From positions 1 through 64,000 of the forward strand of contig NW_026865226.1 in the NCBI RefSeq assembly GCF_026571515.1: 64,000 nucleotides of DNA. Reading direction: 5' to 3'. This DNA is from Ruditapes philippinarum. Its lineage: Eukaryota. Both the position numbers and the translations under genes were made by a program. The notes beneath the pieces are model-generated. The model did no database searches and had not been told where the DNA came from. It saw nothing but the letters and a program-made list of their open reading frames with translations. Below, piece by piece: positions 3,895 through 43,040 of the stretch (positions are counted from its first letter, which is position 1; each line of letters starts with the position of its first letter).

Positions 3895-4547
3895 TGTTAT
3901 GTATGCATCATATTACATGTATATAATTTATGTCTGACCGGTTGGTATCTCCAATATTATCATTGTTCAATTTTTAGAACATTAACTACATGTATGTACT
4001 AGAACTTTCTTAACTGTTGTAGAAAACTCATGCATTATATTTAGATAGAAATTTCCGGAATGATCTTTATTGTTGAAGTTGCTAGATTATGATATAACAT
4101 AATAGACTTCTCTGGAATGTTCCTAGTTTATATATATATTACGGGATATTTTTCATTTGGGGTACCTTTTAAAGTCATCAGTGATCTTTAAGTCATCAGT
4201 TACCTTTTTTAGTCATCAGTGATCTTTTAAGTCATCAATATATTTGGAGTATTATTTAACTTGGAAATTAAGTGATTTATTGGAGCTTGGATTATTAATT
4301 ATTCTTGTGGATTTTATTGTGGGAATTTATTCTAAAGTGTTCTTGGATTTAACTTGGATTTAACTGTGCTATTGAAAAAGGATCATTCCAGGATCAGACT
4401 AGACATTTGTAATTTTTATTTGGACTTCAGGTATTTGTAAAGATAATTTGTTATTTTATTTTTCTTTAATAATTTTTCTGTAATAAATTTGTTATTGTTA
4501 CAAGTTTGTTGCTGGCTTTTCTTTCTCGTTACGCCTGGCTCGTAACA
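3895..4547 (+). repeat. 5' LTR
   Basis: Direct repeat of 9684-10336 with about 5 substitutions by eye; TG...CA ends; (TA)n TATA-like tract near 4130; AATAAA at 4482-4487. Confidence 0.97.
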
Positions 4548-4552
4548 GAAAT

Positions 4553-4570
4553 TGGGGGCTCGTCCGGGAT
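4553..4570 (+). promoter_or_regulatory. Primer-binding site complementary to the 3' end of tRNA-Pro
   Basis: TGGGGGCTCGTCCGGGAT, the canonical 18-nt tRNA-Pro PBS, 5 nt downstream of the LTR. Confidence 0.95.
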
Positions 4571-4744
4571 TGAATATTTCTTTTTGGCTACATTATTGGA
4601 AATTATTACCGTTTATTATATAGTTTATTATTACCGTATTTACTCATCTGAGTTGATATCATAGTTGTTCTATTAAGTGTACCTTTCATTTTGAAATTTT
4701 TGAAACACATCACTTTCTGAGTTTAAAACCAGCAACAAGCAGTC

Positions 4745-7700
4745 ATGTCTTTTAATTTAGAAAAGTTTGTAGCTGAACCTTCCCAGGAGGTATTAGATTT
4801 GGCTAAGAAAACTGATTTGCTCGATCTTGCAAAAAAGTATAATTTATTAGAAATTAAATCTTCAATGCGTAAACAAGAAATTAAAAATCTTCTGATTCAT
4901 TATTTTGTGGATGAAGATATTTTTGGAGAAGATGCACTTTCTCACATTGTTGAAAAACACTCTGAAATTTCTGAAATTAAGATAAAAGAGCTTGAACTTC
5001 AATTTAAATTTGAACTAGAAAAAATGCAATTAGAAAAAGAAAGGGAAGAAAGACAGTTAGAAAAAGAAAGGGAAGAAAGGCAGTTACTGTTAGAAAAAGA
5101 CAGGGAAGAAAAAGAAAGGGAAAGGCAGTTTGAAAAAGAAAGGGAAGAGAGAAAATTAGAAAAAGAAAGAGAAGAGAGAGAATTTCAGTTAAGAATGAGA
5201 GAATTAGAAATCAAAGAGAGAGCAAATCAGTTTGAACATAGAATAAATTCAAAATTTGATGTAACTAAAAATATTAGGCTTGTTCCACCTTTCCAAGAAA
5301 AAGAAGTTGATAAGTATTTTCTTCATTTTGAAAAGGTTGCTGAAAATTTAAAATGGCCAAGAGAGCACTGGACGTTACTTTTACAGAGCGTCTTAATTGG
5401 TAAAGCTCGTGAAATCTATACAAAACTTACTGTTGAACAAAGCTCTAATTATGATAATGTAAAAGAATTAATTCTGAAAGGTTATGAGTTAGTACCAGAG
5501 GCCTACAGGCAAAAATTCAGAAATTCTAAGAAAGAAATTGGTCAAACCCATGTCGAATTTGCAAGAGAAAAAGAACAACTTTTTGATCGGTGGTGTCTAT
5601 CTAAGAAAATAAGTAAAAATCATGAAAAGCTCAGACAGCTCATGTTAGTTGAAGAGGAGTTTAAACGTTGTATTCACTCTGATGTTAAATCTTTCTTAGA
5701 TGAAAAACAGGTTGAACTTTTAGAAGAAGCTGCCCGTTTAGCTGATGATTATTCTTTAACCCACAAAGTTTCATTTATAAATAAAGGGAAGTCCACACCC
5801 TCACATTTTAATTCCAAGTTCAGTTCTGGTAATCTATCTGGTTCATCTAGTCAGTCAAATACTCCCAAACCAAAGTCATCTGATGAACATAAAGGTCATA
5901 GTCCCTTATCTCGTCCTACATGCAATTATTGCAAGAAAACTGGACATCTTATTTCTGATTGCTTTACCTTAAAAAGGAGGCAACAACAACGTGATGAGGC
6001 CAAACCCACAGGTCTTACCACTTCAAGGTCTGAACCTCAGTCTTGTATTGATAACAATGCAATTTTGAAGGTCAAAGAACCCAAATCTGATTCTATAATG
6101 GAGATTTATGAACCATTCCTTTCGGAAGGTTCCGTGTCACTTATCGGTGATACTTGCCCACCTACTCCTATTAAAATTTTAAGAGACACAGGAGCTTCTC
6201 AATCTCTTATTTTAGCAGATACACTGCCTTTTTCTGAGAAGACTTCTTCTGGATCTAGTGTCCTTATTCAGGGTGTAGAGTGTGGTTTTTCTAATGTCCC
6301 TCTCCATAATATTTATTTGTCCTCAGATTTGGTAACTGGGCCAGTGGCTGTAGGTATAAGATCTTTCTTACCCTTTAAAGGTGTTCATTTATTGCTAGGT
6401 AATGACTTAGCTGGAGATAAGGTAGTGGTTAATCCACTTGTAACTGACACTCCTTGTGTGGATCAGATACCTGACCCCATTGAGCAGGAAATTCCTGACC
6501 TTTACCCTTCATGTGCAGTTACTCGAGCTATGGCTAAGAAGGCCATTCAAGAAGACAATTTTTGTTCAGATATTGACTTAGCTGATACTTTTATAGGTCA
6601 GTCTTTTGATAATGAAATAAATTTTTCTCACACTCCTACTCTGCCTGAAACTCAGACAGATTTTTCAATATCTGACTTCTCTACTCCAAGATCACAGCTT
6701 ATCCAGGAACAACAAAATGATCCTGAGATTTCTGTCCTTTTTCAAAAGGCTTTTAGTGAAGATGAAGCTTTACAAGTCCCTGTTTGTTATTATGAAAAGA
6801 ATGGGATTTTAATGAGAAAATGGCGACCGCCCGATGTCCCTGCTGAAGAGGAGTGGACAGTTAATCACCAAATTGTGGTCCCTAAATCATATCGCCAGGA
6901 AATATTAAGCTTGGCTCATGAAACACCCATGGCAGGTCATTTAGGTGTTAATAAAACCTACCATAAAATTCTCAGTCATTTTTATTGGCCTGGCCTTAAA
7001 GCAGATGTATCTAGGTACTGTAAATCTTGTCATACTTGTCAGATGGTTGGAAAACCTAACCAGACAATACCTAAAGCTCATTTACAGCCTATTCCTGCAT
7101 TTGATGAACCTTTTAGTAGAGTTATTATTGACTGTGTAGGTCCATTACCAAAAACTAAATCAGGTTCTCAGTACTTATTAACTATTATGTGTGCTTCTAC
7201 GCGCTTCCCTGAAGCTATTCCTTTAAGGAATATTAAAGCAAAAACTATTGTCAAGGCTCTTGTGAAGTTTTTCACATTTGTTGGTTTACCTAAATCAGTA
7301 CAGTCTGATCAAGGGTCAAACTTTATGTCTGGTATTTTCCAGCAGGTCATGCACGAGTTAGGTATTACTCAATATAGGTCTTCAGCCTATCACCCTGAAA
7401 GTCAAGGTGCATTAGAAAGATTTCACCAGACTCTGAAAAATATGATAAGGTCATATTGTTTTGACACTGAAAAAGACTGGGACGAAGGCATCCATTTATT
7501 GTTATTTGCTGTAAGAGAATCTGTTCAGGAATCTCTTGGCTTCAGCCCTTTTGAATTAGTATTTGGTCACACTGTCCGAGGACCCTTAAAACTTCTAAAA
7601 GAGAAATTCCTGTCTGAAGATGACATATCTTTAAATTTGCTTCAGTATGTATCCGATTTTCGAAATAGGTTGACTAATGCATGTGAGTTAGCTAGGGTCA

Positions 7701-8278
7701 ATTTAAAATCAACACAAAGTAAAATGAAATTAAGGTATGATGAGAATGCTCCGGAAAGAAGTTTTAACCCTGGTGATAGAGTACTTGCTCTTTTACCTAT
7801 ACCTCGAAAACCATTGCAGGCAAGATACTTTGGCCCTTATACTATTGAAAAGAAAGTCAGTGACCTTAATTATATCATTAATACTCCTGGGAGGCGAAAG
7901 CAAAAACAAATGTGTCACATAAATATGTTAAAAGAATATTTTGACAGAGATAGCACAATTAGTAAACCTATATCTGTTGTAAACTCTGTTCCACAAAATC
8001 AATGTTCAGTTGAATCTAATAGTTATGAAAATTTTGAAAAGTCTGATCCTGGTTCAGCAAAGCTTGAAAACTCTGATATTCTGAAAAATCTGGATGAAAA
8101 ACTTGCTCACTTAGAACCGTCGAAACGAGATGAACTGAAACAGCTTATTTATGAATATGAACACTTATTTCCTGATATACCCACACGGACTGACAAAATA
8201 CATCATGACGTCATTCTTGAAAACTCTGAACCAATAAAACAACATCCATATAGAACAAATCCTGTAAAACAAACCTAA
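4745..8278 (+). CDS. Gag-protease-integrase polyprotein (1177 aa)
   Basis: EKEREER coiled coil, capsid/SCAN-like region, CCHC knuckle CNYCKKTGHLISDC, protease LRDTGASQS, integrase HHCC (AHETPMAGHLG...CHTC), DDE core (IIDCVG, SDQGSNF, LERFH), GPY motif. Confidence 0.95.
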   Translation: MSFNLEKFVAEPSQEVLDLAKKTDLLDLAKKYNLLEIKSSMRKQEIKNLLIHYFVDEDIFGEDALSHIVEKHSEISEIKIKELELQFKFELEKMQLEKEREERQLEKEREERQLLLEKDREEKERERQFEKEREERKLEKEREEREFQLRMRELEIKERANQFEHRINSKFDVTKNIRLVPPFQEKEVDKYFLHFEKVAENLKWPREHWTLLLQSVLIGKAREIYTKLTVEQSSNYDNVKELILKGYELVPEAYRQKFRNSKKEIGQTHVEFAREKEQLFDRWCLSKKISKNHEKLRQLMLVEEEFKRCIHSDVKSFLDEKQVELLEEAARLADDYSLTHKVSFINKGKSTPSHFNSKFSSGNLSGSSSQSNTPKPKSSDEHKGHSPLSRPTCNYCKKTGHLISDCFTLKRRQQQRDEAKPTGLTTSRSEPQSCIDNNAILKVKEPKSDSIMEIYEPFLSEGSVSLIGDTCPPTPIKILRDTGASQSLILADTLPFSEKTSSGSSVLIQGVECGFSNVPLHNIYLSSDLVTGPVAVGIRSFLPFKGVHLLLGNDLAGDKVVVNPLVTDTPCVDQIPDPIEQEIPDLYPSCAVTRAMAKKAIQEDNFCSDIDLADTFIGQSFDNEINFSHTPTLPETQTDFSISDFSTPRSQLIQEQQNDPEISVLFQKAFSEDEALQVPVCYYEKNGILMRKWRPPDVPAEEEWTVNHQIVVPKSYRQEILSLAHETPMAGHLGVNKTYHKILSHFYWPGLKADVSRYCKSCHTCQMVGKPNQTIPKAHLQPIPAFDEPFSRVIIDCVGPLPKTKSGSQYLLTIMCASTRFPEAIPLRNIKAKTIVKALVKFFTFVGLPKSVQSDQGSNFMSGIFQQVMHELGITQYRSSAYHPESQGALERFHQTLKNMIRSYCFDTEKDWDEGIHLLLFAVRESVQESLGFSPFELVFGHTVRGPLKLLKEKFLSEDDISLNLLQYVSDFRNRLTNACELARVNLKSTQSKMKLRYDENAPERSFNPGDRVLALLPIPRKPLQARYFGPYTIEKKVSDLNYIINTPGRRKQKQMCHINMLKEYFDRDSTISKPISVVNSVPQNQCSVESNSYENFEKSDPGSAKLENSDILKNLDEKLAHLEPSKRDELKQLIYEYEHLFPDIPTRTDKIHHDVILENSEPIKQHPYRTNPVKQT

Positions 8279-9486
8279 GACAAGAAGTTCAGTATTTATT
8301 GGATAATGACTTTATTGAGCCAAGTCAAAGCAGTTACAGCTCTCCATGTATTCTGGTACCAAAATCAAATGGAACGTATAGAATATGTACAGATTATCGT
8401 AAAGTGAACTCTGTAACAAAAACTGATTCATTTCCTATACCAAGAATTGATGACTGTATTGACAAAATTGGAAAAGCAAAGTATGTAACAAAGTTTGATC
8501 TTCTAAAAGGATTCTGGCAAGTTCCACTTACTGATAGAGCTAAAGAAATATCAGCCTTTGTAACACCAGACGGCTTATACATGTATCAATATAAAGTCAT
8601 GCCATTTGGTATGAAAAACTCACCAGCAACTTTTCAGAGACTTATAAACATGGTAATATCTGGTCTACACGGATGTGACGCATACATTGATGACGCAATC
8701 ATCTACTCTGATGAATGGGAGGAACATCTCAAAACTATAAGAGCATTCTTCGACTGACTTAGTGATGCTAAATTGACAGTTAATCTTGCAAAAAGTGAAT
8801 TTTGTCATGCAATTTTAACATTTTTAGGACATGTAGTGGGACAGGGTAAAGTTAAACCAATAGAAGCTAAGGTCAAAGCTATCTCTGAATTTCCTGTGCC
8901 TACTTGTAAAAGACAACTGATGCGATTTCTTGGTATGGCAGAGTATTATCGTAAATTTTGTAATAATTTTTCGGTTATTGCAGAACCATTGACAAATTTA
9001 CTGAAGAAAAGAAACAAATTCATTTGGAATGACAAGTGTCAAATGGCATTTAACAGCCTTAAAGCTATACTTAAGAGTGCACCAGTTCTCTTGGCACCAG
9101 ATTTTAACAAAAACTTTAAGTTAGCTGTAGATGCTAGTGACATAGGTGCTGGAAGTGTATTGATCCAAGAAGACAACAATGGTGTTGACCATCCTGTTTG
9201 TTACTTTTCTAAAAAGTTTAATGAACATCAGAAAAATTACTCTACTATAGAGGAAGAGTGCCTTGCTCTTATTCTTGCTATTCAGCATTTTGAAGTTTAT
9301 CTAACTTCTTCAAAGTTGCCTGTTGTTGTCTTTAGTGATCACAATCCCCTCACTTTCTTGCATAAACTTAAAAACAAAAATCAAAGGTTGTTGAGGTGGA
9401 GTTTGTTTTTGCAAGAATATAGTCTTGACATTAGACACATTAAAGGGAAAGATAATTTGATCCCTGATGCACTTTCACGTGTCTAA
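8275..9486 (+). pseudogene. Reverse transcriptase + RNase H, disrupted by a frameshift (~8272) and a TGA at 8755-8757
   Basis: CTDYRKVN, FDLLKGFWQ, MPFGMKNSPATFQ, YIDD; RNase H LAVDAS, YFSKK, SDHNPL, DALSR; the frame continues through RAFFD*LSDAKLTVN. Confidence 0.93.
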
Positions 9487-9671
9487 AACTGATATTATAT
9501 ATTATATATTATGATTGTTTAATTTTACTTTGTTGTTTGCTATTGTTTATAATACACATATATATGATTTTATGTATAATATTGTTTAACATTTCTCCTA
9601 CGTTATTTGTAAGTTACATTGTTTGGATTTATGTAAAAGAAATATTCATTTTATTCATATTTCTTTTTCTT

Positions 9672-9683
9672 GAAGAGGGGAAG
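9672..9683 (+). promoter_or_regulatory. Polypurine tract
   Basis: GAAGAGGGGAAG directly abutting the 3' LTR. Confidence 0.9.
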
Positions 9684-10336
9684 TGTTATGTATGCAACAT
9701 ATTACATGTATATAATTTATGTCTGACCGGTTGGTATTTCCAATATTATCATTGTTCTATTTTTAGAACATTAACTACATGTATGTACTAAAACTTTCTT
9801 AACTGTTGTAGAAAACTCATGCATTATATTTAGATAGAAATTTCCGGAATGATCTTTATTGTTGAAGTTGCTAGATTATGATATAACATAATAGACTTCT
9901 CTGGAATGTTCCTAGTTTATATATATATTACGGGATATTTTTCATTTGGGGTACCTTTTAAAGTCATCAGTGATCTTTAAGTAATCAGTTACCTTTTTTA
10001 GTCATCAGTGATCTTTTAAGTCATCAATATATTTGGAGTATTATTTAACTTGGAAATTAAGTGATTTATTGGAGCTTGGATTATTAATTATTCTTGTGGA
10101 TTTTATTGTGGGAATTTATTCTAAAGTGTTCTTGGATTTAACTTGGATTTAACTGTGCTATTGAAAAAGGATCATTCCAGGATCAGACTAGACATTTGTA
10201 ATTTTTATTTGGACTTCAGGTATTTGTAAAGATAATTTGTTATTTTATTTTTCTTTAATAATTTTTCTGTAATAAATTTGTTATTGTTACAAGTTTGTTG
10301 CTGGCTTTTCTTTCTCGTTACGCCTGGCTCGTAACA
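9684..10336 (+). repeat. 3' LTR
   Basis: Direct repeat of 3895-4547, followed by TSD ATTC. Confidence 0.97.
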
Positions 10337-14483: not shown

Positions 14484-17400
14484 TGACACCTATCAGCTTA
14501 ATACAGTTCCTGCAGCATATTCAAAAGCACTGGGATATACTCTTTTTACATATATTCAGTTAATAACATTTTCGCACACATTATCTTATTAAAAACCGTT
14601 TTTATAAACTACTGTCTACTCTGGAGTGAGCATATACATATTAGTTAGCAAACAGTTTGTACAGCTGTGTCTGTGAACTAGATTCACTTTGTATGTTTAC
14701 ATTCCTTTCCTTGGGAATAAATACATGTAACAATTGCATGTTTGAATCTTTGGTAAGCATGGAATAACGATTATACATGCATTCAATGTATAAATATTCT
14801 AATTTTAGTTTAAAACATGTTTAATTTTAAGGAATATAAATGTGACTGTTATCGTTTAAGTGTGTTGATAAATTATTTTTTTATTCATAATCAAATCAGT
14901 CAGTCATGGATTAAGTATTTCATTATAATTTTAACGTTGATTAGTTTCTTATGTCACTACATAAAGTGTTTGATAAAAATGTATGTATGTAAGTATGTAT
15001 GTATGTATGAGAAAATTTAAATTTGTGTATATCAAAAACCAAAACGATTTTTTCATGTAATTAATGTTTTAAATTTTGTATATAGCTATCTATTGTAGTC
15101 AATCGATTTCATCAACTATAAAACTAAATTTGTAAATGATTATAACTTTTAAGCTATAATTTTAATTAAAAAACATTTTAAGGTTATATCTTATTCTACA
15201 ATACAGTTCTGCTTACATGGTCATTTTTAATTGAATGTTATTTGTTTTGCAAATAATAAGGGTAACAAAATTCTATTATGTGTGTGCATTTAATGTACCA
15301 AAGAGTTTTGTATTTTAAGAAATCGTACTACAAGAACATGTTGTTGCCATTCTTTGTTATTTTCTAACAACTCTCCCTCATATCTCTGAAGCAATGCCGA
15401 GCCTATCCCAGCATTCAAGGCATCACACTGTAAAATGAATTCTTTCGAAAAATCAGGCAGTCGAAGAATTGGACTCTTGGTTAGTTGCTCCTTTAAAGTA
15501 TGAAAAGCTCTTTCTTGCTCATCTCCCCATCGTACCCTGTTTGGTAAACCTTTCTTCGTTAAGTCTGTAAGAGGTGCCGCAATCTCAGCAAACGATGGTA
15601 TAAATCTTCTGTAATATCCGGCAAGTCCTAAGAATGCTCTAACTTGTCTATTTGAACTATGCCATTTCCCACCATATGTCCTGTAAAACCAATGTTGTTA
15701 TATCCTATATAACACTCCGATGGCTTTATGGTAAGGTCTGCTTCTGCCAATCTTTGGAGGATCTGCCGCAGCATTGTCATATGTTCTGTCCAGGTTGTTG
15801 TATGCCCTAATCATATCGTCAACATAGTTGTCAACAAAATCACACCCTGCCAAATAACTTCCGCATCATTCTGTTGAATGTGGCTCCAGAGTTTAACCAT
15901 ACCGAAAGGCCATTTTCTTGAATTGATAACTCCCTCTATCCGTTTGCAAATGCTGTAAATCTGCGGCAATTTTCAGCAACTGGGATTTGCCAATAACCTT
16001 TGCATAAGTCAATCTTTGGTAAAATACTTAGCATCTTTTCAGCTTTGCCATGATGTCATCTACGCTTGCCATTGGTTCGGTGTCAAATTTGGTGACGGCA
16101 TTCAGTCTTCTAAAATCAATAACAAAATCGATTACTCTCATCTTTCTTCTTGACAATGACTATCGGTGCGTTGTATTCCGACACAGATGGTTCTATCACA
16201 TAGCCTTTATCATATCTTGTATTTCATTTTCAACAGCTTGTCTCCATGGGGTACTGTTTCACTCTCACAGGAATTCTTTGTCTGTTAGTTCACGTGGTGC
16301 TCTATCAGTGGAGTTGTTCCTGGTTCGCTTTCTGAAAAACACTTCGCAAAACTCTTGAAGTATGGCAAGGACTTGCTTGCCTCTGTTAAGGAGTAAGTCG
16401 CTCACTGATTGATTGACATCTTGGTTATGTCTACTCGCACTTTGTGTAGTTAGGGAAGTCCCAGGAGACATTATCGTCGTCCACCGCTGCCATCTGAATT
16501 ATCTTCAACGTCTTCTATGATCGTTACAACTTACTGCCATCTTTATTTGGCGTTCTTCATATTTCTTCAGCAAATTAATGTGGGAACGTGCTTCAGCTTG
16601 TCTCCAATCTTGATTCTGTTTAAATCAAATCTATTAATTACTTCGACAACTTGAAACAGGTCCTTTCCATTGAAGGCATGCAATCTTATTATTGTCCTGT
16701 GGGTAAAAGCAGTAAGACTTTATCTCCAACACGCAAAACATTGTTTCGAGCTCTACTTGTTATAGTGATGCTTTATAGGTATCCTTGGCTTTCCAACAGG
16801 CTTTTTCTTGCTATCTTGCATGTTTTCCTGCCAAGCGCTGCTTCAGGGTTGAAGCACATACAGGTATGTATTCTGTATCTCTGGGTCATCTCCTTTGAGT
16901 CCACATCGTCCTTAGTATTTGCATTGGCCTCTTTAACTGGTTCTTCCATACACTGCAACTCAAACGGGGAAAAATCCTGTACTCGCGCTGTGGTACCTCT
17001 GCTGTATAGCAAATAATAGCGGCCGGTAAGTATCTACCTGCAGTGCTTCGGTGCTTTCCTGGCTACATGTTCCGCAGCATATTCTTTTAAGGCACATCCA
17101 TCATCTGTATACCGCTCAACAGACAATGCCGTTGCAGCTTTGGATTGTTAAGGTGTTGTGAAGAGTTGGCTTCACGCAGGATATGTAGTCGGCATATGCT
17201 CTCTTTCATGAGGTCTGCTGTATAATTTGACTGCCTCTGTACTTAGTAACTTTGAAGGAAATCGCTCACCCTTATATATAAATTGCAAGGGCAGTGCTTG
17301 CATAACAATTGCTCTCGTGTCTATTTTCGCCATGGGCTTACGGCTTTCAGGTACGTGTGGCAAAATCCTTAAGGCCACCGTCTAGATATATTCTGTTGTC

Positions 17401-19746
17401 CCCCCCCCGGCCGCTTAGCTCCGACAGCTGGTATATATGCGGTCTAATCAAGTCTATTGCACTGCGATGAATTAATGGTTGATGCATCTACCGCGCATGT
17501 CTCACTAGGGGGTAGCCGTTGCTATGCCCTGCGCCGATTTTGGGACTGGTTCTTCCTGGCTCAAGCTAACGTCAGCAGCGAATCTACAAAACGTCCACAT
17601 CTCTACCGTTATTTCCGGCTGGGCCAATGGAGAGCTTGTCAGGATTCTGTCCTCTGTCTTCTTAGATGACAAATGTCCAGCTAACAATGGGATTGCATGG
17701 GGCATGTTCGCATCATCATCTTACAAGTCCTGTTGGAACTAAGCAATCTGTTTTGAGTCATCAACCATTTTTCTGAAAAGTAAACCTCTATACAAGGGCA
17801 GCACTACGCGTTTTGCGCAGCGCAACCGTATTTTAAACTTGCTCGCATGCTTTGGTTTGCAAGCTTCTTTTCTGCTTCTCTATTGGCTAAGTCGCCAAGA
17901 CTTTCTTCAATGAAGAGTCAGCTTCTGGTATTCCTTGCAATTTTGTCTATGTCAACTTCAGCTTCGCAGGAAAGAGTTTTTGGAACAGTGCAACGCTGCT
18001 AGTTGGACGGTCTGCTTCTCTGAAATGCTGTGCTCTTGTCATGACTGCTGCAACAGGCCGATGGTATCTTTCTGTCACTTCGCATTCAGGATCGAGGCTT
18101 ATCTAAGTACTTCCGGCAACGTTATGCAATCACTAATCAGCATATTAATGACTTAAGGCACGCATTGCTCTATGATCTGCCAACATAGTTATATGTTGCG
18201 GATCGAAACCCTCATTATTTTTTCGCCAAAGGTACTACTGGCATCCTCCATCAATTGTTATGCATCAAACATGTTCTTTACCCGTGAATGTTGTTCTCCC
18301 TTTCACAACTTCTTCTTATTACGCGCCGCTAACTCAACATACCATATCTGCTGCATACACTCTAACTGCTATTGCTGCGCAATCAAAGCCGCTTTTTCAA
18401 CTCGGCAGGTTTCTTTCTTCTTCTGCGCAATAATGCGAATGGTAGCAGCTGTCCCCGCGAGGATCGGGCAGCAGTCTTGCACGGCGACCTGGCTAACCTT
18501 CAACTTTCCTTATGCTATGCAGGTTCTTGGTCTAGTGGGATTAAGGTCTGCTTTGGCAGCATACGGCTGGCTACCTTGCGGTTCACTTCTTACACTTCTG
18601 ATTTTGTTTGCCGACAATCTTTTTGGGCAATATTCTGGCCGTCTTGTTGCAAATACAAGCAGCACCCTATGCGGTGGCTTGGCTTGCTGTTGTTTTGTCC
18701 GGCAGTCTCTGGTAGATGGTGCGCGCCTTATTAACATAATAAAGCATGTGCTTCATTGGCAAGGAATTTCTGTTTCTGCGTGTCATTCCTGCTTGTATGT
18801 CTGCTGAATTATTTCGGCTTGGCCTTAGAAACCATTCTGCCTTGTTATTGGAACTGGAGTTAGCCGTCTGGCAAAAGCAGAAGAAGCCCTTTATGCGCTT
18901 CTATGTACTTGCTCTGAAAGGCGTGTTAACTCTCTATTGATGTCTGGCAGCTCTCGTCTTTGCAGGAAGGCGGCAAATCTGTGGAACAGCGCGGCTCGAT
19001 GAACTGTTCTTGATTAAGTAGCTCGCTTATTCGGGCATGAAAGGTCTGGCTGCTACTCGCAGCTATATCTGTGCGGCACTTTGTGAAATATCGTCTCAAA
19101 GCGGGCTCTGGTCAATGAAACTGAAAAACAGCTCACCAGGTTAGTGGTCTGCTCTGCTGAACTTCACCGGTGCCTGAAGACGCCTGCTGCACTGCAACTG
19201 GTATTGCGTTTTTAAGTATAGCCTCTTTTCAAGGTGTCATCTCGTTGGCTTCTTTCAATAGGCAATTTGTGTAATACTTCAGACCTTGCGGCATGTAAGT
19301 AATTGAGTCTAAAGCTCCTGGCCCAAGGGTGTCCTCTCTTCCGGCTGTCGTTGGCTGATGGGCTAAATGTTTTCAATCTCTGCCAGAAAGATCTCATATA
19401 TCATTTGCTTCATCTCATGCAGAAGTCTTAGGTATTCTTGTCTGAGGGAGCTTGCTTCCCTCAGCTGGTGGTTAGCTTTGGCTGGATTTGATCGCGCTGT
19501 CATCTCTGAGTAATCTTTTTCCTTGCATGCTGAGGCTAACATGTTATTTCGCATGCTGTCTTCTTGCTCTTCACGGCGCTTCGGGCCTTTTCCTCTCTGG
19601 CTAGTGCACTCCTTGCTTCGGCTTCTCTTGAAAGAAACAGATAATAAATCGCTGCCAGCGATAAGCGCTAGGCTTGCTCTCCTATTCTTAACGCATTCCG
19701 TCGTAAAAACATATTGCTCAGTTTTATGCAAAAGCTCTTTAAAGTG

Positions 19747-19766
19747 ATGCCCGGACGAGCCCTCCT
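19747..19766 (-). promoter_or_regulatory. tRNA-Pro PBS of element 2, with two single-base insertions
   Basis: Reverse complement AGG[A]GGGCTCGTCCGGG[C]AT, 4 nt after an ...ACA LTR-like end. Confidence 0.7.
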
Positions 19767-19879
19767 TAATTGTCTAAGTTTGGTTTCAGCTTTTGCAGAT
19801 TTTTATCGATATGCTGAGGGGCGGTATTTTGTGAGTTATAAGTTAAGAATCGGCTGGTACTCCTGGAATTGCTGCAGTA

Positions 19880-20520
19880 TTCAGACTTGCTGGACTATTG
19901 GACTTGCTGCACTATTGGACTTGCTTGCACTTATTGCACTAGGCTACGCTTCTTAGACTTGCTGCGTGTGCTTGGACTTGCTTCTATATAAGTGTGTTGG
20001 CTGCGGCTTCTTGTACTTGCTGCACTATTAGCATCTAGCGCACGCTTTTTTTAGACTTGCTGCGCTTCTTGGACTTGCTGCAAGAAGTTCTTTGGACTTG
20101 CTGCGCTTCTTGGACTTGCCTGCGCTTCATTGGAGCTTGCTGGGCGCCTTCTTTAGTACTTGCTGCAACTCATTGGAACTTGCTGTCGCGCTCCTTGGAC
20201 TTGCAGCGCTTCTTGGACTTGCTGCGCTTCTTGGACTTGCTGCGCTCTTGGACTTGCTGCGCTTCTTAGACTTCTTGGACTTTGCTGCGCGTTCTTAGAC
20301 ACTTGCTGCGCTTCTCTTGGAAACTTGGGGCTGCATTTCTTGGACTGTGTGCGGGCGCTTCTTAGACTTGATGGCGCTCCTTGACTTGCTTCTTTTCTGG
20401 GAAGCGGACCGTTCTTGAGACTTGGCTTCTTTACTGGGAGCGGACTCGTTCTTAGACTTGCTTCTTTACTGGGAAGCGGACCGTTCTTAGACTTGCTTGC
20501 TTTACTGGGAAGCGGACCGT
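19880..20520. repeat. Minisatellites within the putative LTR of element 2 (18-bp unit, then about 35-bp unit)
   Basis: More than 20 copies of CTTGGACTTGCTGCGCTT, then about 4 copies of CTTAGACTTGCTTCTTTACTGGGAAGCGGACCGTT. Confidence 0.85.
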
Positions 20521-22859
20521 TGGTTAAGGCTCAACTCTTCACTAGAAAGCCGACGCACGTTTTCTAGACTTGCTGCTTTATTCGGTTCCCTCACTGGACC
20601 TGCTTCACCAACAAGGGAGACTTGCTGAAAATTAAGCTTTGACAAGTATATATAAAGGCTTTCTTTTGCGAAAATCGAATTTTTTTTGCTCTTTTTTATT
20701 TGCCAATTTGCATTTGCAATATAAATACACATAACGCCGAAGCCGGTATAGAACGCCACAATTGGTGACGTCACGTCAAAAACTAATAATATAGATATCA
20801 AAAATGGCGGGACATTTGTGTTTGCTTTCATAAAATAAAATGGCTATTTTGACAAGTAGGATGTATTATTTTGGTTATTAATAAGTTAGAATTATACAAA
20901 GTGCGCTTTTTAATGATATGATAAGTGAAGTAGCGGAAAGGCATAAGATTTATTAGCGGTTTCCTGGCATACACATTAGTGCTTAGTACTGCGCGCGGAT
21001 AAAGTTTTTTCTTAGTCTTGAATAAAGTCCGTCTGTTTTTCTTAGTAGGGCTCTTTAGGGCGTGGGATTACTAGTAGTGATTAAGAGTCGCTGATTTTAT
21101 CCTCGGGTAAACCGAAATTTCTCCCTGACAAATAAACTTGGACATTGATCCTTTAATCATTTGTCTCTCGCCACTTATTCCGAAATCATGTAGGATTAGA
21201 TTTTAGATAACATAGTTTTGTATTTATACATGAAAATACTTTGTCATAAAAAGCACAGTAACAATTATTCCCACGGAGCATGCCAGGCTTAAGTCATTGA
21301 GTATTACTTTTTTGTTAATCTAAATTGATCTGTCTTGACCATTTATCTTGTCAATCATCCTTTCCAGGTACAAAAGGCCAAACATTCAAAACTCTTGGTC
21401 ACAGCTAAGAAATATATTAGTATAATAATATATATAATATAATTTAAAATATACTTAAAGACTGTCTAGCTTCTAATCAAATGCGAACATGGACACAGTT
21501 CTATTGCCATTATCGTAGTTATTGTAGATAATATTTACTAATTTTAAGATAATTATTCTTACGAATTTACATTTTTTAAAGGAATGTTGTTTTACAAACT
21601 AACATTTATTTGTAAAAAAAAAACGCTAATCAATGACGCAAGATTTAGAAGTATGTTTAATAAAGGTACTCGGCCGGAGTACACCTCCCTTATTCATAGG
21701 TTATTTCTGAATTTTAAATACATGGAGAAATGTTTACAATGTTTAGAAATGAATACAACTGTTTCATTACTAAACACAAATTATTTATAGTCCAATTCAT
21801 TTTACTTGTTGAAGCCTGTTGCGAAATAAGATCAACATATCATTATTCAAAAACTATTTGTTTTCTTAAAAGGACAATGAACGGATTACATTAATATTTC
21901 GATTCATGTACAATACATTTTCCTCATTGTCTCCAAATTTCTATTTATAGTTTAGACATAAGTGTTTAAATGTATACCTGTTACATTTAAAGTGACATAA
22001 TTTTTCGCTGTCAAACTGAGTTCAAGTTGTAATATATTATATTTCAAACGTTTTGCAATTATTTTGGTCATTGACCAATAATTGATATAGAAAATTGATT
22101 ATGATACAGTATATATACTACCTGGATTATGAAAACAATTGTCACATATTTTTTAAACCGATACATTTGCACGATATTTATAGTAATTTATGGTAGTAAC
22201 GTGTTTTGTTTGTTACTATCATTTTCGGTGTTTAATATATTATTGAACAAATTATGGCAAAATGTCAATATTGTTTATCTTTACATGTTAACTAACAATT
22301 TTAACTTGAATGGGTATATGAGTTTAACAAAGCGTTCGCAATTTGTTCGATTCTAACATAATTTCTATTTTATCATACATAATATTAAACGGTCAAGTAT
22401 ACAAAAATAACAATGTATGGATTTTATAAGTATATTAATATATACATTCAAACTATTTTAATCAGATAAATATAATAAGGTAAATAAATACATAAAAAAT
22501 GAAGCAAATAACCTACTTATTTAATGTGTGTTTCAAATTTCTTGTTTTTATATAGACAAAAATGTTTTGATGTTGAGATGAATTTGTAATATATTTCAAT
22601 ATATGGTATTATTACGGGGACAGACGTACGATTGATTATAAAAAATGTTTATGATACAATGACTGTTTAGTAACTGCATTAATTATAAGACTGTTCCACA
22701 CTTCTAAAGTATTCAGCGTTACCGATACATTCTGAACTTTATTATAGACATTTCTGGTGATCATGTGGATTTTTTATATTTTTTCCATTGTAAAATATAA
22801 AATTGAACAAAGTTATGGCAAAATGTCAATTTATTTTTTTCCGCCTTTTTAAAGAATAA

Positions 22860-31556: not shown

Positions 31557-32540
31557 TAATTATGTCTCACAAAACTTTTGGGAGACATATTGATTTTGCA
31601 TTCGCCGTCTGTCTGTACGCCCGTCCGTCTGTCCGTACGTCTGTCCGAGCAAACATTTTAGGTTAAAGGGCTATATAACGGCAAAAGAACAAAGAGAACA
31701 ATAGGTTCATTCCGTGATCAAACGTTTTTGTGCTAGTAGCCCTCAAGAAAACAAAAGAAAATAACAACAAAAATAGCCCCTTAACCCCAAAATGTTTGAA
31801 CGTCCGTCCGCATGTAGCTTGTCCGGTCTTCACAGTTCAAACAATTGGTGAGATTTTAACAACACTTTACAGGAGTGATCAGTACTGTCCCTAGTTGTGC
31901 ACTCCACCGGCACGCTTCGCTTTGCTGCACAAAATGGCCGCCATAGCTAAAAATAGAACTATATTGTCTAGCCTACACAGGTTAAACTTCTGGTGGGATT
32001 TCAACCAAACTTTACAGGAGTGACCAGTTTAATTCTTAGTTGTGCACATCGCCGGCACGACCCGCTTCACTGCACAAACTGGCCGCCAGAGCTAAAAAAA
32101 GAAAACTATTGTCCAGCCTTCACAGGTTTAACTTCTTGTGGGATTTCAACAAAAATTTATAGGAGTGACCAGCAAAATCACTAGTTGTGCTCACCACAGA
32201 CAATTTACGCTTAGCTGCACGAAATGGCCACCAAAGCTAAAATAGAAACATATTTTCCGGCCTTCACAGGTAACACTACTTCTTGGATTTCAAAATCACC
32301 GGTACGCTCAGCTGCGCTCCACAGAATGGCCACCAAAGTTAAACATAGAAAACTCGGCTTTCACATGTCAAACTGCTCGTGGGATTTCAGCCAAAATTTA
32401 CAGGTTTGATCATTACTCTCGGTAGTTGTGTATATCGCTAAATATAGAAAAATCTTGTACGGCCTACACAGGTCAAATTTCTGGTGGGATTTCAACCAAA
32501 CATTACAGGAGTGGTCAGTATCATCCTTATTCTTGCACAT
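31557..32540 (+). mobile_element. HINE/Helentron-type non-autonomous element with about 150-bp tandem core repeats
   Basis: Terminal stem-loop atgtctc...gagacat; (GTCY)n microsatellite 31607-31647; about 5 units cttcacaggt...gggatttcaaccaaactttacaggagtga... Confidence 0.8.
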
Positions 32541-32546
32541 CAACGG

Positions 32547-32819
32547 GAGTGGGGCGTCCGTGGCCGAGTGGTTATGGTCGTTGACTTCAAACCACTTGCC
32601 CCTCACCGCTATGGGTTTGAGTCCTGACAGCAACTGGATTCTTTCATGTAAGGAAGCTATCCAGCTAGCTTACAGAACGTCGGTGGTTCTACTCAGGGCC
32701 CGTTCGTGCCTGAAATTATGCACGGAGGGGCACCTGAGGTCTTCCCCCATCAGTAAAGCTGGAACGTCGCGATATGACCTATACTGTGTCGATGTGACGT
32801 AAAACCCCATCAAAACAAA
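32547..32819 (+). mobile_element. tRNA-derived SINE with a V-type core (RUDI/BivaV-like)
   Basis: A box GTGGCCGAGTGG, B-box-like GGTTTGAGTCC, core ggaagctatccagctagcttac...gtggttctac...gcacggaggggcacctg, A/C-rich tail; imperfect TSD acatcaacgg/acatcatcgg. Family name from memory. Confidence 0.85.
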
Positions 32820-33488
32820 ACATCATCGGCACATGATGAACCATTCTGAAATCCACAGGTTTTTATGTAGCTTGACCATTCAATGAGTTCTCGACTCTAC
32901 TGGGGCTTGTCGCTTCCATGAACATTTACTGCCTTTACGACGCGGGGTTGAATTGTCTTGACTTTCGATGGTCTCTTGTGCATTTATCAGCATAAAACGC
33001 TCCTCTTGAGGAATTTCAGGTACTGTATTGAATGTATTATTAATCGTATAACACACGTATTATTACACCAGGGAGCACGCAGAAATTAACGCTTATTGTT
33101 ATTAAAGCCATATTATTGTATTAAATGTGCATTATAACAAAAGGGATATAATACTTTTGAATGGGCGTTTTGTGAACTTAGCCAGAGTTTTAGGGAATAA
33201 GTCGATTTGAACTATTGATAATAACTACGTTTAATAACAAACCACTTGAAATTTAATTGAATCGTATAATAAAGTCAGGGAGTGCGCGAAAATGACAAAA
33301 GATTAACAGGGGGGGGGGTGGTATGCTTAATTTTGATCGGTTAAAAAATGATACATTCTGATTGGTAAGTCAAACAGTTTTAAAACAGAATGAATTATGA
33401 AATTTAAAATTGTAAACCAGTCAAATGCTAGCAGGAATTGACCAACTGGCGGATACTTTGGTTGCGTAAGTAAGAAAGAGTTCAGATT

Positions 33489-33567
33489 GAATGAATGAAT
33501 GAATGAATGAATGAATGAATGAATGAATGAATGAATGAATGAATGAATGAATGAATGAATGAATGAA
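33489..33567. repeat. (GAAT)n microsatellite expanded in the left arm only
   Basis: About 19 units here versus about 4 (ATTC) units at 34368-34384. Confidence 0.97.
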
Positions 33568-33849
33568 CGTTATAAAATATGAGTCTAAATGTATATTGAT
33601 TTTCTCGAATTAAAGAACAAAAAATATGATAAAATAAACGTGACAATATTAAAAATTGAAATACAAAATAAAACGGAATAAATGCAATAAATGAAATAAA
33701 ATGAAATGTAATTGTTTAATTTTATTAACGATGCAAGAGCATATTTATTAATATTTTATACGATTCTGTCACAATGGTTTATGATTATTAAGACTAATGA
33801 TACAATTGTTTTGTAAATCTAGTCATTATTATTGTTTGATTATATTTGT

Positions 33850-34174
33850 CATTTAGTCACTATTAAGTGATCATTGTGTCTCTTCTGACGTAGATTAAAT
33901 TCTTTGATAATGTCTTTCATTGTTTGTCCCTGGTATCGTTTTATAACATAGTATGTGCAATCAAACCCACACGTTTGATAGAAAAACTCTGTGGTCGTTT
34001 ATTTTACAAGATATTTTCTTTCTTAAGTATCTTGTCAAAGCCAAATTAGCCAATGCCATAGCTTTCAGGGATATATACAAGTGAGTCAAAATATTCGTAA
34101 GGCCCGTGCTTAGGAAAATAGAATGCCACCCAATGTTCTCCTGGTCAATCACTCGTATCTGTGTTCGAAATCAC
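33850..34174 (-). pseudogene. Adenovirus-like (adenain, peptidase C5) cysteine protease remnant
   Basis: VISNTDTSD*PGEHWVAFYFPKHGPYEYFDSL, then after frameshifts NKRPQSF/LSNV(C)GL/(Y)CTYYVIKRYQGQTMKDII. Confidence 0.8.
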
Positions 34175-36904
34175 GAAATGACTCCTTTTAACGCGTAATT
34201 AAAATTAACATTTCTTTTGTTTTTATTTATTGTATTTATTCCGTTTTATTTAGTTTTTCTGTTTTCAATATTGTCACGTTTACTCTATCATAATTTTTTT
34301 CTTTAATTTGAGAATTTTAACACGCATTAAGACTCTTATTATAACGTTCTTAATTAATTAATTCAAACATTCATTCATTCATTCAATCTTAACTTTGTCT
34401 TATTTACGCAACCCCGAGTACCCGCTGATTGGTCAATTTCTGCTAGCATTTGAATGGTTTACAATTTTAAATTTCCGAATTCATTCTGTTTTGAAACTTT
34501 TTGAATTAGTAATCAGAAAGCGTCATTTCTGAACCGATCAAAATTTAGTATATCCCCCTTTTGTTAATCTTTACCGTCATTTTCTGCGCACTCCTTGATT
34601 TCAATTTCAAGTAGTTGGTTATTAAACGCAAATATTATCAATAAATTATATTGACTAATTCCTTAAAACTCTGGCTTAGTTCACAATACCCACATTCAAA
34701 AAAATTAGATTACTTTTCTTATAATGCACATTTAATATAATAATATGGCTTTATTAACGATAAGCGTTAATTTCTGCGCACTCCATGGTGTTATGATACG
34801 CGTGTTATTCTATTAATAATACAATACACACCAAAACGTAAGTAATTATATTATATTGCCGATTTGTTGCGCAAAAACGGTTGACTATTATTTTTCTTCA
34901 TTTTTTGGTTTTATATGAAAATTAAGTTTATGTAGCATCGAATTCATCTACTTAAGTCAAGTCATTACCATAATTTAAATCAATACTTTGAATTACCAGA
35001 CAATAAAACGGAATTTAATGAATACAACATTTTTACTGAGATTAGAAAATGTATCCATCATTCATGCTATAAAGCATATTTAGATTTAGATTCTTTTAGA
35101 GGTTATTTATTTCGTACTTTGGTATAAATAATAATCAGTTATATATTTTTTACCGCATTGTAATCTATTCAAAAGTGATATTCTGTAAAACAAACAGTAT
35201 TTAATATTTAAAATGTGACCAAAATCATAATTCATTATGTAAATTACACATACTTAAAACGTAAATATATTTGCTAAAATATCGCATTTTAATATTTTCT
35301 CATCGAAAAGTACAGTAGTTCAGTGTTATCATTTATACCTTATAAGAAACTATTCAAGAGGGATATCAGTATTCTGTATAACAAACAACATTTAATATCA
35401 AATTTGATCAAACCTTCAACCATATTTATTCTTCTTATTAGACCAAAAATTATAACGCTTTTATTTTATTCAAATTTGACATAATAATTACGGGTTTTAA
35501 TATAAATTTACCAGCACAAAAATTCTATTCTATTTTTTCCAAAAGCAATCATTTTATATATAATTTTAATAACCATTCCAAAATTCCCTCCCTTTGTCAT
35601 TATTATAATACACGTTTAACTAACAATACACCTATGTTCGTATTCTTATCCCCTTCGTTATAAAACGCGTTTATATAATACACACTACTTGATTAGGTAT
35701 CTTCGTATATACTTTAAATCAAAACCAACAAGAATTGCGGAATGCCATTCAAACTATAATCCAAAATAATCTCGCGCATACGCAGTGAGTGGGGTAAAGT
35801 GACCCCTTTACTACTCAACAGAAACTCGGGCTTTTTATATGATTAACAGCTGATTCTTTAAACACGGCCTTATACAGAAACGATCAGACAAACAAGGTAA
35901 CTAGTGTAATGTAAACAATCTAAAGATAATGACCGAGGTTCGCCTACTGCTTTAAACAAGGTAGCAGACGATTATTTCTCTAAAATAAATGGGATTATTT
36001 TAATTCTAACATGATATGAAACAATGTATCGCTGTAGAGAACTATTTACTTGTTGTAAAAATATATATCTACAGATAAACTGACAGCGTAAATGTATGCA
36101 AATATATGATAGCAATACACAATAATAACACTAGTAATAAGATTAAATTATTAAAATCACCAAATGGTTTAAGGGCCTTAAATCTGTCTAATCGAATTTT
36201 ATTGTAAATATATTCAGTATTTATCGGGTAACTTAGATAAATTATACGAAACTGTTGACATGTTTATTGAAATATAATAAAAAAAGGAACATATATCGCA
36301 AAGGTAATACTTTTTTCTTACATTTTATTTGTTACCATGAAAGCAGACATGGTAAGTTTTAAAGATTTTTGACAGGTTCCTTATATAGCGGTCGTTTGTT
36401 TGTATTTTTAACCAGAGCCACCAGAATCTGTCAAAAATCTTTCCTATACAACGAACTTTCTTTGAAAATTATTTCATAAAATGACAGCAGCCATGTGTAT
36501 AGTTTGTATAAACGTCACGATTTAAGCTATGAAAACCGAAGTTATAAACGCGCAGTATCATAAAGACATATTTTTAACATTTGTTCACCAGCTATTATTT
36601 ATTAAGAGGGAGTTGAATTTTCGTGAAATTAGCCAGACAGCCGGAGCAGCCGGAACAAATGTTTGTCTAGTCCGGCTGTGCCGGCTACTCCGCCTAGCAG
36701 GAATCCGGTTCCAGCTGAATCGACTAGCAAGAGAATATATAGTTAAACCTTTCGCAAAAGACCATTGGTTTATTCCATAATGTAGTTTAAAAATATTAAC
36801 AAGGATCACCTTGATCTCTGGCTATTCCGAAAATTAATGCTATCTAAGATATAAAATAGTTTATACGAAAACAGATTTATAAATATTTGTTTCGTGCAAG
36901 TTGT

Positions 36905-40037: not shown

Positions 40038-40888
40038 CATAGGAACTCGAGTACGGGACCGCTGATTGCGGCGCACATTTTCGATCGTGTAACGGTTTTT
40101 AAAAACGTTTCTGCTACATCTAAATATATTTAAGCATAATCCGAGCATATGGCCTCAAACAATATATTATCACTTGAACCCAATCTGTTACTTTTAAAAC
40201 TAGTCAAATTTTACTGTATTATAAAAAAAGACAAGGAGTGACATCCGCCATTTGCCGCAACGTTCGGCATGAGTTTTCCCCCTTTGGCTACACTTGATTA
40301 CTATTTTTTCAGAATTTTGTTCCCGTTATCGTTGTCAACTATCAGGTATCGTAACGGTTTATTGTTTACACGTGTTGACATGCACTAGTGTTTGACATGT
40401 ATAGTCGGCATTATAACGGGCGTATTCGTGTTATGATTTGTTTACATGGAGAAAACAGACACTTTAGTAATATGGTCTAATAGATTTTGCGTAACTGAAA
40501 AAAAGGAATATTAAAACATGATCCATAGATAAATATTCAAGGCACTCATCTGGTATTCCTTATTAGGAAATGTGAAAGTTTCCCATGTATTGAGTGACAT
40601 AAAGAGAGTACTAGAAAAATTAAAACAAAAATCAAGCATATCAAGGGGGATAACTTACGCCGAACGTTGCGGCAAATGGCGGATGTCACTCCTTTTCTTT
40701 TTTCAATATACCGTAAATTTGACTGATTTTTTAATTAGCAGATTATACTAAATTGAGATAAGATAATTAAAGACCATCCGCTCGTATAATATAAAAAGAT
40801 ATTCAAAGGTCGGACAAACAATATGTAAAGCTGGTACGGATTCGGATTTATGCGCCGCAATATGCGGTCCTGTTCCAGAGTTCCTATG
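40038..40888. mobile_element. MITE with about 250-bp imperfect TIRs and 8-bp TSD (P-like or hAT)
   Basis: Termini CATAGGAACTC / GAGTTCCTATG; TSD ATAAAAAC (40030-40037, 40889-40896); near-perfect inner inverted block aaggagtgacatccgccatttgccgcaacgttcggc. Confidence 0.9.
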
Positions 40889-41199: not shown

Positions 41200-43040
41200 T
41201 TTCATAAAGACATTGAGATTTCGATAATACACAACACAGTGACGTTATGTTTAAATGTCGACAAAATACCAGTCTTTATCTAACGGTCTAACTTGTACCA
41301 GCAAAAAAAGGTCTTTACCTTTGCAAATAGTTAACACAATAACATGCCAACACATGTGGTTCTGCAGAATTGAGCCTATAACTCACAGAAACAAATCGGA
41401 ATTTGCGACATTTGAGCTAAAATGACTACATTACTAGAAAAAACAGCAGACACACATCGGATCCTTTAATACCTCAGACCACCTTCTTATATCCTCGGGC
41501 TCATCTTCGCGAATTCACGATTGCAACTTCTCGAATGCACGATTTCAACTTTGTTATTCACGATGAATTCACAATTTCAACTGTATGACGATTTAAACTT
41601 CATCAATTCAAGATTTCAACTTCACGAATTCACGATTTAAACATCACGAATACACAAATTCAATTATATGACGATTTCAACTTCATGATTTCATGAATTC
41701 ACGATTTCAACTTCACGTATTCAAGATTTCAACTTTACGTATTCAAGATTTCAACTTCAAGAATTCAACTTTACGACTTCAAATCCGTGAATACACGATT
41801 TAAACGTCCTGAAAGTGAAATCTTGAATTGGTGCAGTTGAAATCGTGAATTCGTGAATTCCGTATGTTAAGTCAAAATCTTTCATTCATGAAGTTAAAAT
41901 TTTGATTTCATAAAGTTGAAATCGTGAATTCGTAAGGTTGAAATAGTAAATTCACGAAGTTGAAATCGTGAAGTTTAAATGATAAAATTTTGATTTTATG
42001 GAGTTTAAATTGTGAATTTGTGAAGTTGAAAGAGTGAATTCGTGAAGTTAAAACAGTGAATTTGTGAAGTTAAAATCGTGAAACTGAAATCGTTAATTCG
42101 TGATGTTGGTATGTTGCAAATGTAAATTCACGAAGTAAAATATGTGAATTCACGAGTTTAAGATGAAATAAGGTTTTCATGAAGTTGTCCGAACCAGCCT
42201 TTCATGCCTAATCATAAAACGTGGAACTCGGCTTTGGGATCACAGATTCAAGTTGAAAATGGCGAGATTTTAGCAGATATAACAGGCTTTATTCGGCTAA
42301 TTGTCCGCCCAAAATAGAGGATTCCAAAAAGTGCTCAAAGTAAATTGACGAGATATGAGCTGATATGACCATTTACCGTTCGATTTTTGGCTAAACGTCG
42401 GAAAAATACCAGAGTATTCGCGACGCAGACACCCAAGCAGAACGCTTAACCATCTCGCAATATTGAAGAATTGAGTCTATGGCTCACAAGGGGCAGCCAG
42501 AAATGTCGAGATATAAGCTGAAAACACCATTTTTCGACGGACACACGTATACCATCAACACTTACAATGCCAAAATATGGGATTCCGCGAAATAGAGCGT
42601 GTGCACACAGGTGCTAGTCAGAAATTGCGGGATATGAGCTAAAAGAAGTATTTACAGTTCAATTTTCGGTTCAACGTTGGAAAAATACCAGAGATATCAA
42701 GACGGCCACATCTAGATCTATACTAGCGGACACACAATCAGATCCCCAAACCATCCCACTATATTAGGTACTGCAGAATTGAGGCTTGGGCTCACAGGGG
42801 CTAGCTGTAACAGTGTATAAGCTTAAATGATCATTTATAATACGGTTTTCAGTTAAACTCGGCAAAATAACACATCTATACTAGTGGATACACAGGCAGA
42901 TCGATTAACCATCCCACCACATGGAATTCTTTGGAATCAAGGCGTGGGCTCACAGGGCTAACCGGATGAGGCGATATATGAGTTTTAATGGTCATTTATA
43001 GACGATTTTCGGCTACATGTCGACAAAATACTGGTAGATT
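41200..43040 (-). repeat. Decayed inverted copies of the 181-bp satellite
   Basis: aaaataccagagtattc, gatatgagctga, gaattgaggcttgggctcacagggg are reverse complements of motifs in 36905-37490. Confidence 0.75.
41505..42160. repeat. Foldback of about 22-bp repeats (direct in the left arm, inverted in the right arm)
   Basis: cacgaattcacgatttcaactt units to ~41805, then aagttgaaatcgtgaattcgtg units. Confidence 0.88.

Follow-up and report, generated by a model that had tools for sequence, protein, structure and literature searches.

The Maverick/Polinton elements (polintoviruses, animal adintoviruses) typically measure 13-25 kb and have terminal inverted repeats (TIRs) of 100-1500 bp (10.1101/2023.08.22.554363), and they are present across mollusc genomes (PMC10294476). 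AGT-AGT is a published end motif of theirs, with (AGT)2 being the commonest form in vertebrate Mavericks (PMC8097293), and most animal contigs that bear adenain also encode PolB and integrase (PMC8502044). Among the reduced forms, Tlr1 has been called non-autonomous (PMC5499653), and a family named Polinton-1N1_DR is mentioned in the literature (PMC9341505). In butterfly polintons, hexon and adenain were described inside TIRs of ~2 kb, i.e., with a subterminal adenain gene (10.1101/2025.02.07.637071). A different kind of reduced genome occurs in RNA viruses, where copy-back defective genomes have one end duplicated in inverted orientation around a short unique loop. A search of titles and abstract openings gave no description of a protease-only or a copy-back Maverick.

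The locus considered here lies in a window (the whole stretch of DNA that was analysed) of 64,000 nucleotides from Ruditapes philippinarum, and its features are given in Table 1. It shares with the Mavericks an adenain-type protease, a candidate (AGT)2 end, long inverted repeats and a state of decay, but differs in having no remnant of the polymerase, integrase, ATPase or capsid genes, a single end, no 6-bp target site duplication (TSD) and a length of 2.8 kb compared with 13-25 kb. It is not an autonomous Maverick; it is a Maverick-derived relic. Like the non-autonomous Polintons of the Repbase type, such as Polinton-1N1_DR (in which N1 presumably marks a non-autonomous family), it is short, gene-poor and bounded by inverted repeats. 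As in the butterfly polintons, the adenain gene adjoins the end of the element, but those are full-length mobile elements whose genes are intact and doubled, whereas this locus has one truncated copy between non-coding arms. The inverted duplication of an end around a loop is also that of a copy-back defective viral genome, although here in a DNA element that is integrated and old.

Table 1. Features of the locus (window coordinates).
Feature	Position	Strand	Remarks
Left inverted arm	33024..33721	+	AT-rich, non-coding; outer end adjoins an unrelated repeat, without a terminus
Expanded (TGAA)20 microsatellite	33488-33567		Within the left arm
Non-coding tail past the protease stop	33722..33848	-	Common to paralogs; 128-bp in the proposed parent
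Adenain-type (Peptidase_C5-like) protease pseudogene	33849..34198	-	Residues ~23-135 of ~150
Right inverted arm	34197..34828	-	85% identity to the left arm
Outer kilobase, multi-copy	34829..35815	-	Candidate true terminal inverted repeat; no left partner
Candidate Maverick end: AGTAGT, then a short GGGGT/ACCCC hairpin	35791..35815	-	Boundary suggested by a depth dip
Further multi-copy segment adjoining the candidate end	35816..36010	.	Raw depth of ~29 (35880-35989); may continue the element or be a neighbouring repeat

The inverted arms of ~700 bp around a middle, which had been proposed in a first-pass annotation, were borne out by blastn (33033-33721 versus 34823-34197, 76% over 693 columns, E 4e-150, with the columns including the (TGAA)n expansion of the left arm) and by global alignment (33024-33721 versus 34197-34828, 85.0% identity over 627 columns, K2P 0.168). 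The enclosed middle measures 475 bp and not ~430 bp. Divergence between the arms is even along their length (46 transitions, 48 transversions), and beyond the arm ends, outward or inward, there was no likeness above that of shuffled controls. The outer kilobase resembles the arm: it is poor in GC and has a high CpG ratio and a C-skew. It has no partner on the left, where the annotation had assumed a loss of ~1 kb. The locus is a decayed palindromic Maverick/Polinton fragment, old and dead; such relics are common, and only its possible fold-back origin is unusual.

The window as a whole is AT-rich and full of repeats, an assortment that seems bivalve-like. Adjoining the locus on the left is an element of 145-bp tandem repeats (31557-33023) that contains a SINE-like insert (32549-32820) with a 9-bp near-duplication on either side; scans with Rfam and for tRNAs gave no match, including for this insert. 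Farther away, a MITE-like element (40207-40720) has 78-nt inverted ends that are 88% complementary, 22-bp tandem units in inverted orientation form a foldback at 41490-42080, and a GC-richer region (16000-21000, 41-46%) with a marked AT skew and, within it, tandem repeats of 17-36 bp at 19864-20521 is probably a second decayed retroelement. A Gypsy-type LTR retrotransposon occupies 4163-10279 with a 1183-aa ORF and two pol-like ORFs of 167 and 242 aa, where tandem repeats matching at 4163/9952 and 4458/10247 suggest the LTRs; the Gypsy and pol labels are assumed from motifs.

The middle had also been said to encode an adenain-like Maverick protease, and in this the annotation was right. The intact homolog P0004 aligned with the window over residues ~23-135 (tblastn, E 9e-33) and was itself placed with Peptidase_C5 clusters of Preplasmiviricota (atlas, 0.97). 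A search with the main frame retrieved seven homologs of 133-290 aa (55-61% identity), and a profile of eight intact homologs matched pS273R of ASFV (E 8e-7) and the adenovirus protease, adenain (E 0.009-0.03). The Peptidase_C5 family (PF00770) that the fragment had been expected to match was found in all seven homologs (E 9e-5 to 3e-3, two above the curated cut-off) but not in the fragment: Pfam matched neither of its two pieces, NCBIfam gave no match, and a PDB search returned only ASFV pS273R with an E of 0.45. We regard the Maverick origin of this remnant as nearly certain.

The gene is dead and cut at the edge of the arm. Matches to the window were obtained with 178 of the 181 proteins searched, 42 of the alignments beginning precisely at 34198, where the right arm has its inner edge, and only one farther out; no trace of profile positions 1-21 was detected within 32800-36200. 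Since the homology starts at this edge, the protease was cut at the arm. The words of the peptide that had been quoted for it do occur on the minus strand, spread over three frames: HW (34135), YFD (34093) and QS (33991) share one frame, while CG (33971), which includes the Cys codon, is in a different frame from the His and Asp codons. Its first 22 codons are missing (the N-terminus is gone at the edge of the right arm), stops interrupt the frame at 34147, 34048 and 34006, and the frame changes near 33990 and again near 33972, so that the pseudogene has retained no protease function; the truncation, three stops and two frameshifts rule out a functional protease, and the element cannot be said to have kept one.

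Reads of four of the 24 runs listed were mapped to 33570-36869, a stretch that starts inward of the left junction, at 80% likeness. In two samples, the junctions at 33721 and 34828 are spanned by near-identical contigs of a single haplotype, and because these belong to the locus's own haplotype, the locus is real and an assembly artefact is ruled out; none of the contigs listed bridged the junction at 34197 by 31 letters to either side. Mean raw depth was 8.2 in the right arm (without the microsatellite bin), 7.5 in the 3′ half of the protease plus the tail, 21.2 in the outer kilobase, 34.6 in the protease core and 28.6 at 35880-35989, with a floor of 0.3 at 36100-36319; these bins are noisy (2-15 in the arm, 7-33 in the outer kilobase), and for diverged AT-rich repeats, whose conserved parts attract more subfamilies, summed depth is a poor copy count. 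Expressed in contig units, depth in the two samples was 9.4 and 6.7 in the arm, 13.1 and 9.0 in the 3′ half of the protease plus the tail, and 25 and 24 in the outer kilobase. According to the reads, the arms and the outer kilobase belong to a repeat family with some 5-25 diverged members. The two are contiguous in at least one paralog, a contig of which bridges them by 63 bases; another paralog contig contains the outer kilobase but lacks the arm, and one of depth 48 (33715-33951) contains the protease end and the tail up to the left-arm edge. Loose read ends at 34174 run into the missing front of the protease, and fuller copies of the gene therefore exist in the same species. Where right-arm reads vary, the left arm has the family letter at all four listed sites, which, along with the even divergence, argues that the arms were identical at origin and decayed separately. 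As arm depth is close to tail depth and well under that of the outer kilobase, the reads weakly suggest a single arm for each protease in most of the kin.

For the right end, the annotation had proposed an AGTAGT Maverick terminus beside a hairpin. Both are there (GGGGT-AAAGTG-ACCCC at 35791-35806, ACTACT at 35810-35815), and the hexamer is a published end motif, but no target duplication accompanies it and repeat depth continues past 35815 for ~200 bp, to ~36010, at a similar level. Taken alone, the hairpin and the AGTAGT are each within chance: the hairpin region has a z of -1.66, with 14 of 200 shuffles folding equally well, and the window contains 20 such hexamers (13 ACTACT, 7 AGTAGT), another of them at 35684. 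A boundary at 35815 is nevertheless plausible, as it fits a dip in depth (36 and 14 reads at 35780, 8 and 8 at 35832, 32 and 30 at 35902), the start of a depth-193 contig a few bases to its right and the end of the C-skewed tract, which stops at the candidate end. The segment 35816-36010 is homogeneous and multi-copy, and no pile of molecule ends at 35815 was seen among the listed reads. The suggested check for a 6-bp TSD was negative, as the hexamer to the right of 35815 is absent to the left of 33024; this is expected if the left end was lost. Nor could parents be traced by the terminus, which gave 0 matches in viral contigs in two scans.

Relatives of the protease were encoded at 79 metagenome loci and 3 MAG loci (the prokaryote genome search gave 3 distant loci, in MAGs), and viral contigs contained none with P0004 or the profile as the query and one distant relative with P0089, a protein considered below. 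The relatives lie in Maverick gene context, as expected of a Maverick-derived relic, with the capsid gene directly upstream of the protease in 66 of the 69 loci that had enough sequence. At least 1 kb of downstream sequence was available for 32 relatives, and as 27 of these carry another Maverick gene there (none was recognised in the other 5), elements with a subterminal protease are in the minority. L004, the closest relative with mapped genes (53% versus the first sequence of the profile), has its protease in a central position, so that a plain collapse of an element of this type needs two deletions. This locus also has an rve integrase, a double jelly-roll capsid (atlas 0.98), an A32-type ATPase and a polymerase-sized ORF of 1447 aa, which matched one of the five polymerase motifs tried and no Pfam polymerase. 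It is a near-complete Maverick (L004:664-13795) with PC4-like and TBP-like accessory genes; in three others (L007, L011, L013) PC4-like and TBP-like genes are located downstream of the protease instead.

None of these neighbouring genes has left a remnant in the window, where the 1321 ORFs of the 79 loci matched only the protease and the Gypsy integrase. No remnant of polymerase B or a Maverick-type integrase (the only integrase matches being Gypsy, at ~7000-7570), of the packaging ATPase, of either the major or the minor capsid gene or of the small gene upstream of the capsid gene in L004 was detected in it. Conversely, the 79 loci contain no arm or outer-kilobase DNA, only ~50-nt matches to the protease core. 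A 13-nt word common to the candidate end and L004 was dropped, being in a direct repeat and in the wrong orientation.

Two groups of apparently reduced elements were observed among the relatives. The first (L010:123-6013, also L009) is an element of ~6 kb that starts with AGTAGT and has inverted ends (403-828 versus 5691-6013, 94-100%), the contig ending inside the right repeat; it contains a capsid gene, the protease, a 495-aa ATPase-bearing ORF and two short ORFs, without polymerase or integrase, and was read as a mini-Maverick with the virion module only. The second is a cluster (with P0007, P0025, P0026 and P0027) in which, in four of six members, a small gene continues directly into the protease, without an intervening capsid gene; in L004 that small gene precedes the capsid gene, and P0183 has the usual order. 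A closely related protease cluster linked to this small-gene cluster has 104 members, on megabase contigs, which suggests that some eukaryote has an amplified Maverick family without a capsid gene.

Tentatively, the palindrome is best explained by one fold-back event at an end of a parent whose protease was subterminal. Such a parent would have had, in order, the protease, the 128-bp tail, a subterminal segment of ~700 bp, a ~1-kb TIR and AGTAGT. During strand-displacement copying of the linear element, a template switch at about codon 23 of the protease would have let the new strand fold back onto the same end, giving a palindrome of end, arm, protease piece, arm and end, a product that may be likened to a copy-back defective genome. 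The palindrome would then have been inserted by an integrase supplied in trans and decayed neutrally, by about 8% per arm, with the left terminal kilobase presumably lost later. The locus encodes no protein and has no function today, and the protease piece rides in the loop as a passenger. Of all this, the gene identity, the truncation at the arm, the common origin of the arms and the multi-copy family are established. The start of protease homology at the arm edge and the lack of any other Maverick gene remnant in the window speak for a fold-back, as do the initial identity of the arms, the paralog contigs described above and the subterminal adenain genes published for butterfly polintons; it is also weakly favored, over a collapse between two full TIRs, by the apparent single arm per protease in most kin. 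Against it, depth is a poor guide to copy number here, a subterminal protease is in the minority among the relatives, no listed contig bridges 34197, no pile of molecule ends was listed, repeat depth extends to ~36010, the target duplication is absent, and the full parent was not found among the 79 loci compared or in the reads.

The collapse to a defective TIR-protease-TIR form, which the first-pass annotation had favored, we consider rather unlikely. Here the parent would have had TIRs of ~1.6 kb that included the arm, and internal deletion (one if the protease was subterminal, two if it was central) would have left TIR, protease piece and TIR, with the left outer kilobase lost later. The geometry is the same and agrees with that proposal, the arm and the outer kilobase are alike in composition and skew, vertebrate TIRs reach 1,447 bp (PMC8097293), and the ~6-kb L010, with its AGTAGT start and long inverted ends, is an example of a gene-reduced element. 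Internal deletion, however, predicts an arm depth equal to that of the outer kilobase and twice that of the tail, whereas 8 : 21 : 7.5 was observed, and a paralog exists with the outer kilobase but without the arm. The TSD is missing as well, and in the reads mapped to 33570-36869 the complete arm-protease-arm form did not turn up a second time, nor was a shared 34197 junction visible in the rows listed.

It is improbable that no mini-element ever moved, and that host repair produced the inversion after integration, as a fold-back duplication within a Maverick end already in place, or that an unrelated foldback or MITE-type repeat captured the piece of protease. The absence of a left terminus and target duplication, the single locus seen, the second repeat abutting the supposed end and the decay of 96% of vertebrate Maverick loci (PMC8097293) would all fit, but the protease end, tail and arm edge are common to paralogs and an end motif lies at the point where the C-skew ends. 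A MITE-type insertion, moreover, should leave a duplication at the arm ends 33024 and 34828, where there is none; the lack of matching flanks at the arm ends and the one paralog that continues from the arm into the outer kilobase speak against a MITE.

Least probable is an amplified non-autonomous mini-Maverick, satellite- or segment-like, that moved on after its protease broke with borrowed polymerase and integrase: P0089, encoded on a JGI contig of 3113 bp, groups as the sister of the fragment (98/96) and, alone among the 188 proteins compared, leaves the frame at the same site near 33990, and the 104-member protease cluster, with the capsid-less order in four of six linked members versus a capsid-adjacent one in 66 of 69 loci, points the same way, but only this one copy shares the break, its placement in the tree is inflated by common out-of-frame letters, frameshifts recur independently (P0038), and the kin appear to possess a single arm for each protease. 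P0089 could be a paralog that was copied once decay had set in, or else the ortholog of a related species; used as a query, it retrieved only four further relatives, all intact.

As a single decayed locus, the finding is of little import, broken Mavericks being the rule, and younger, intact examples would lend themselves far better to testing. There is a small chance that the locus is the fossil of a copy-back defective Maverick genome, or else a capsid-less, protease-bearing mini-element of a split Maverick system, satellite- or segment-like, inserted in trans and copied after its protease broke; under such a reading, the capsid-less cluster, L010 and the frameshift of P0089 would be further traces of gene-partitioned Mavericks. 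If the fold-back is true, the palindrome would be the genomic footprint of a Maverick that replicated as a free linear molecule and made defective, helper-dependent genomes, and it would bear on whether Mavericks have a true viral phase.
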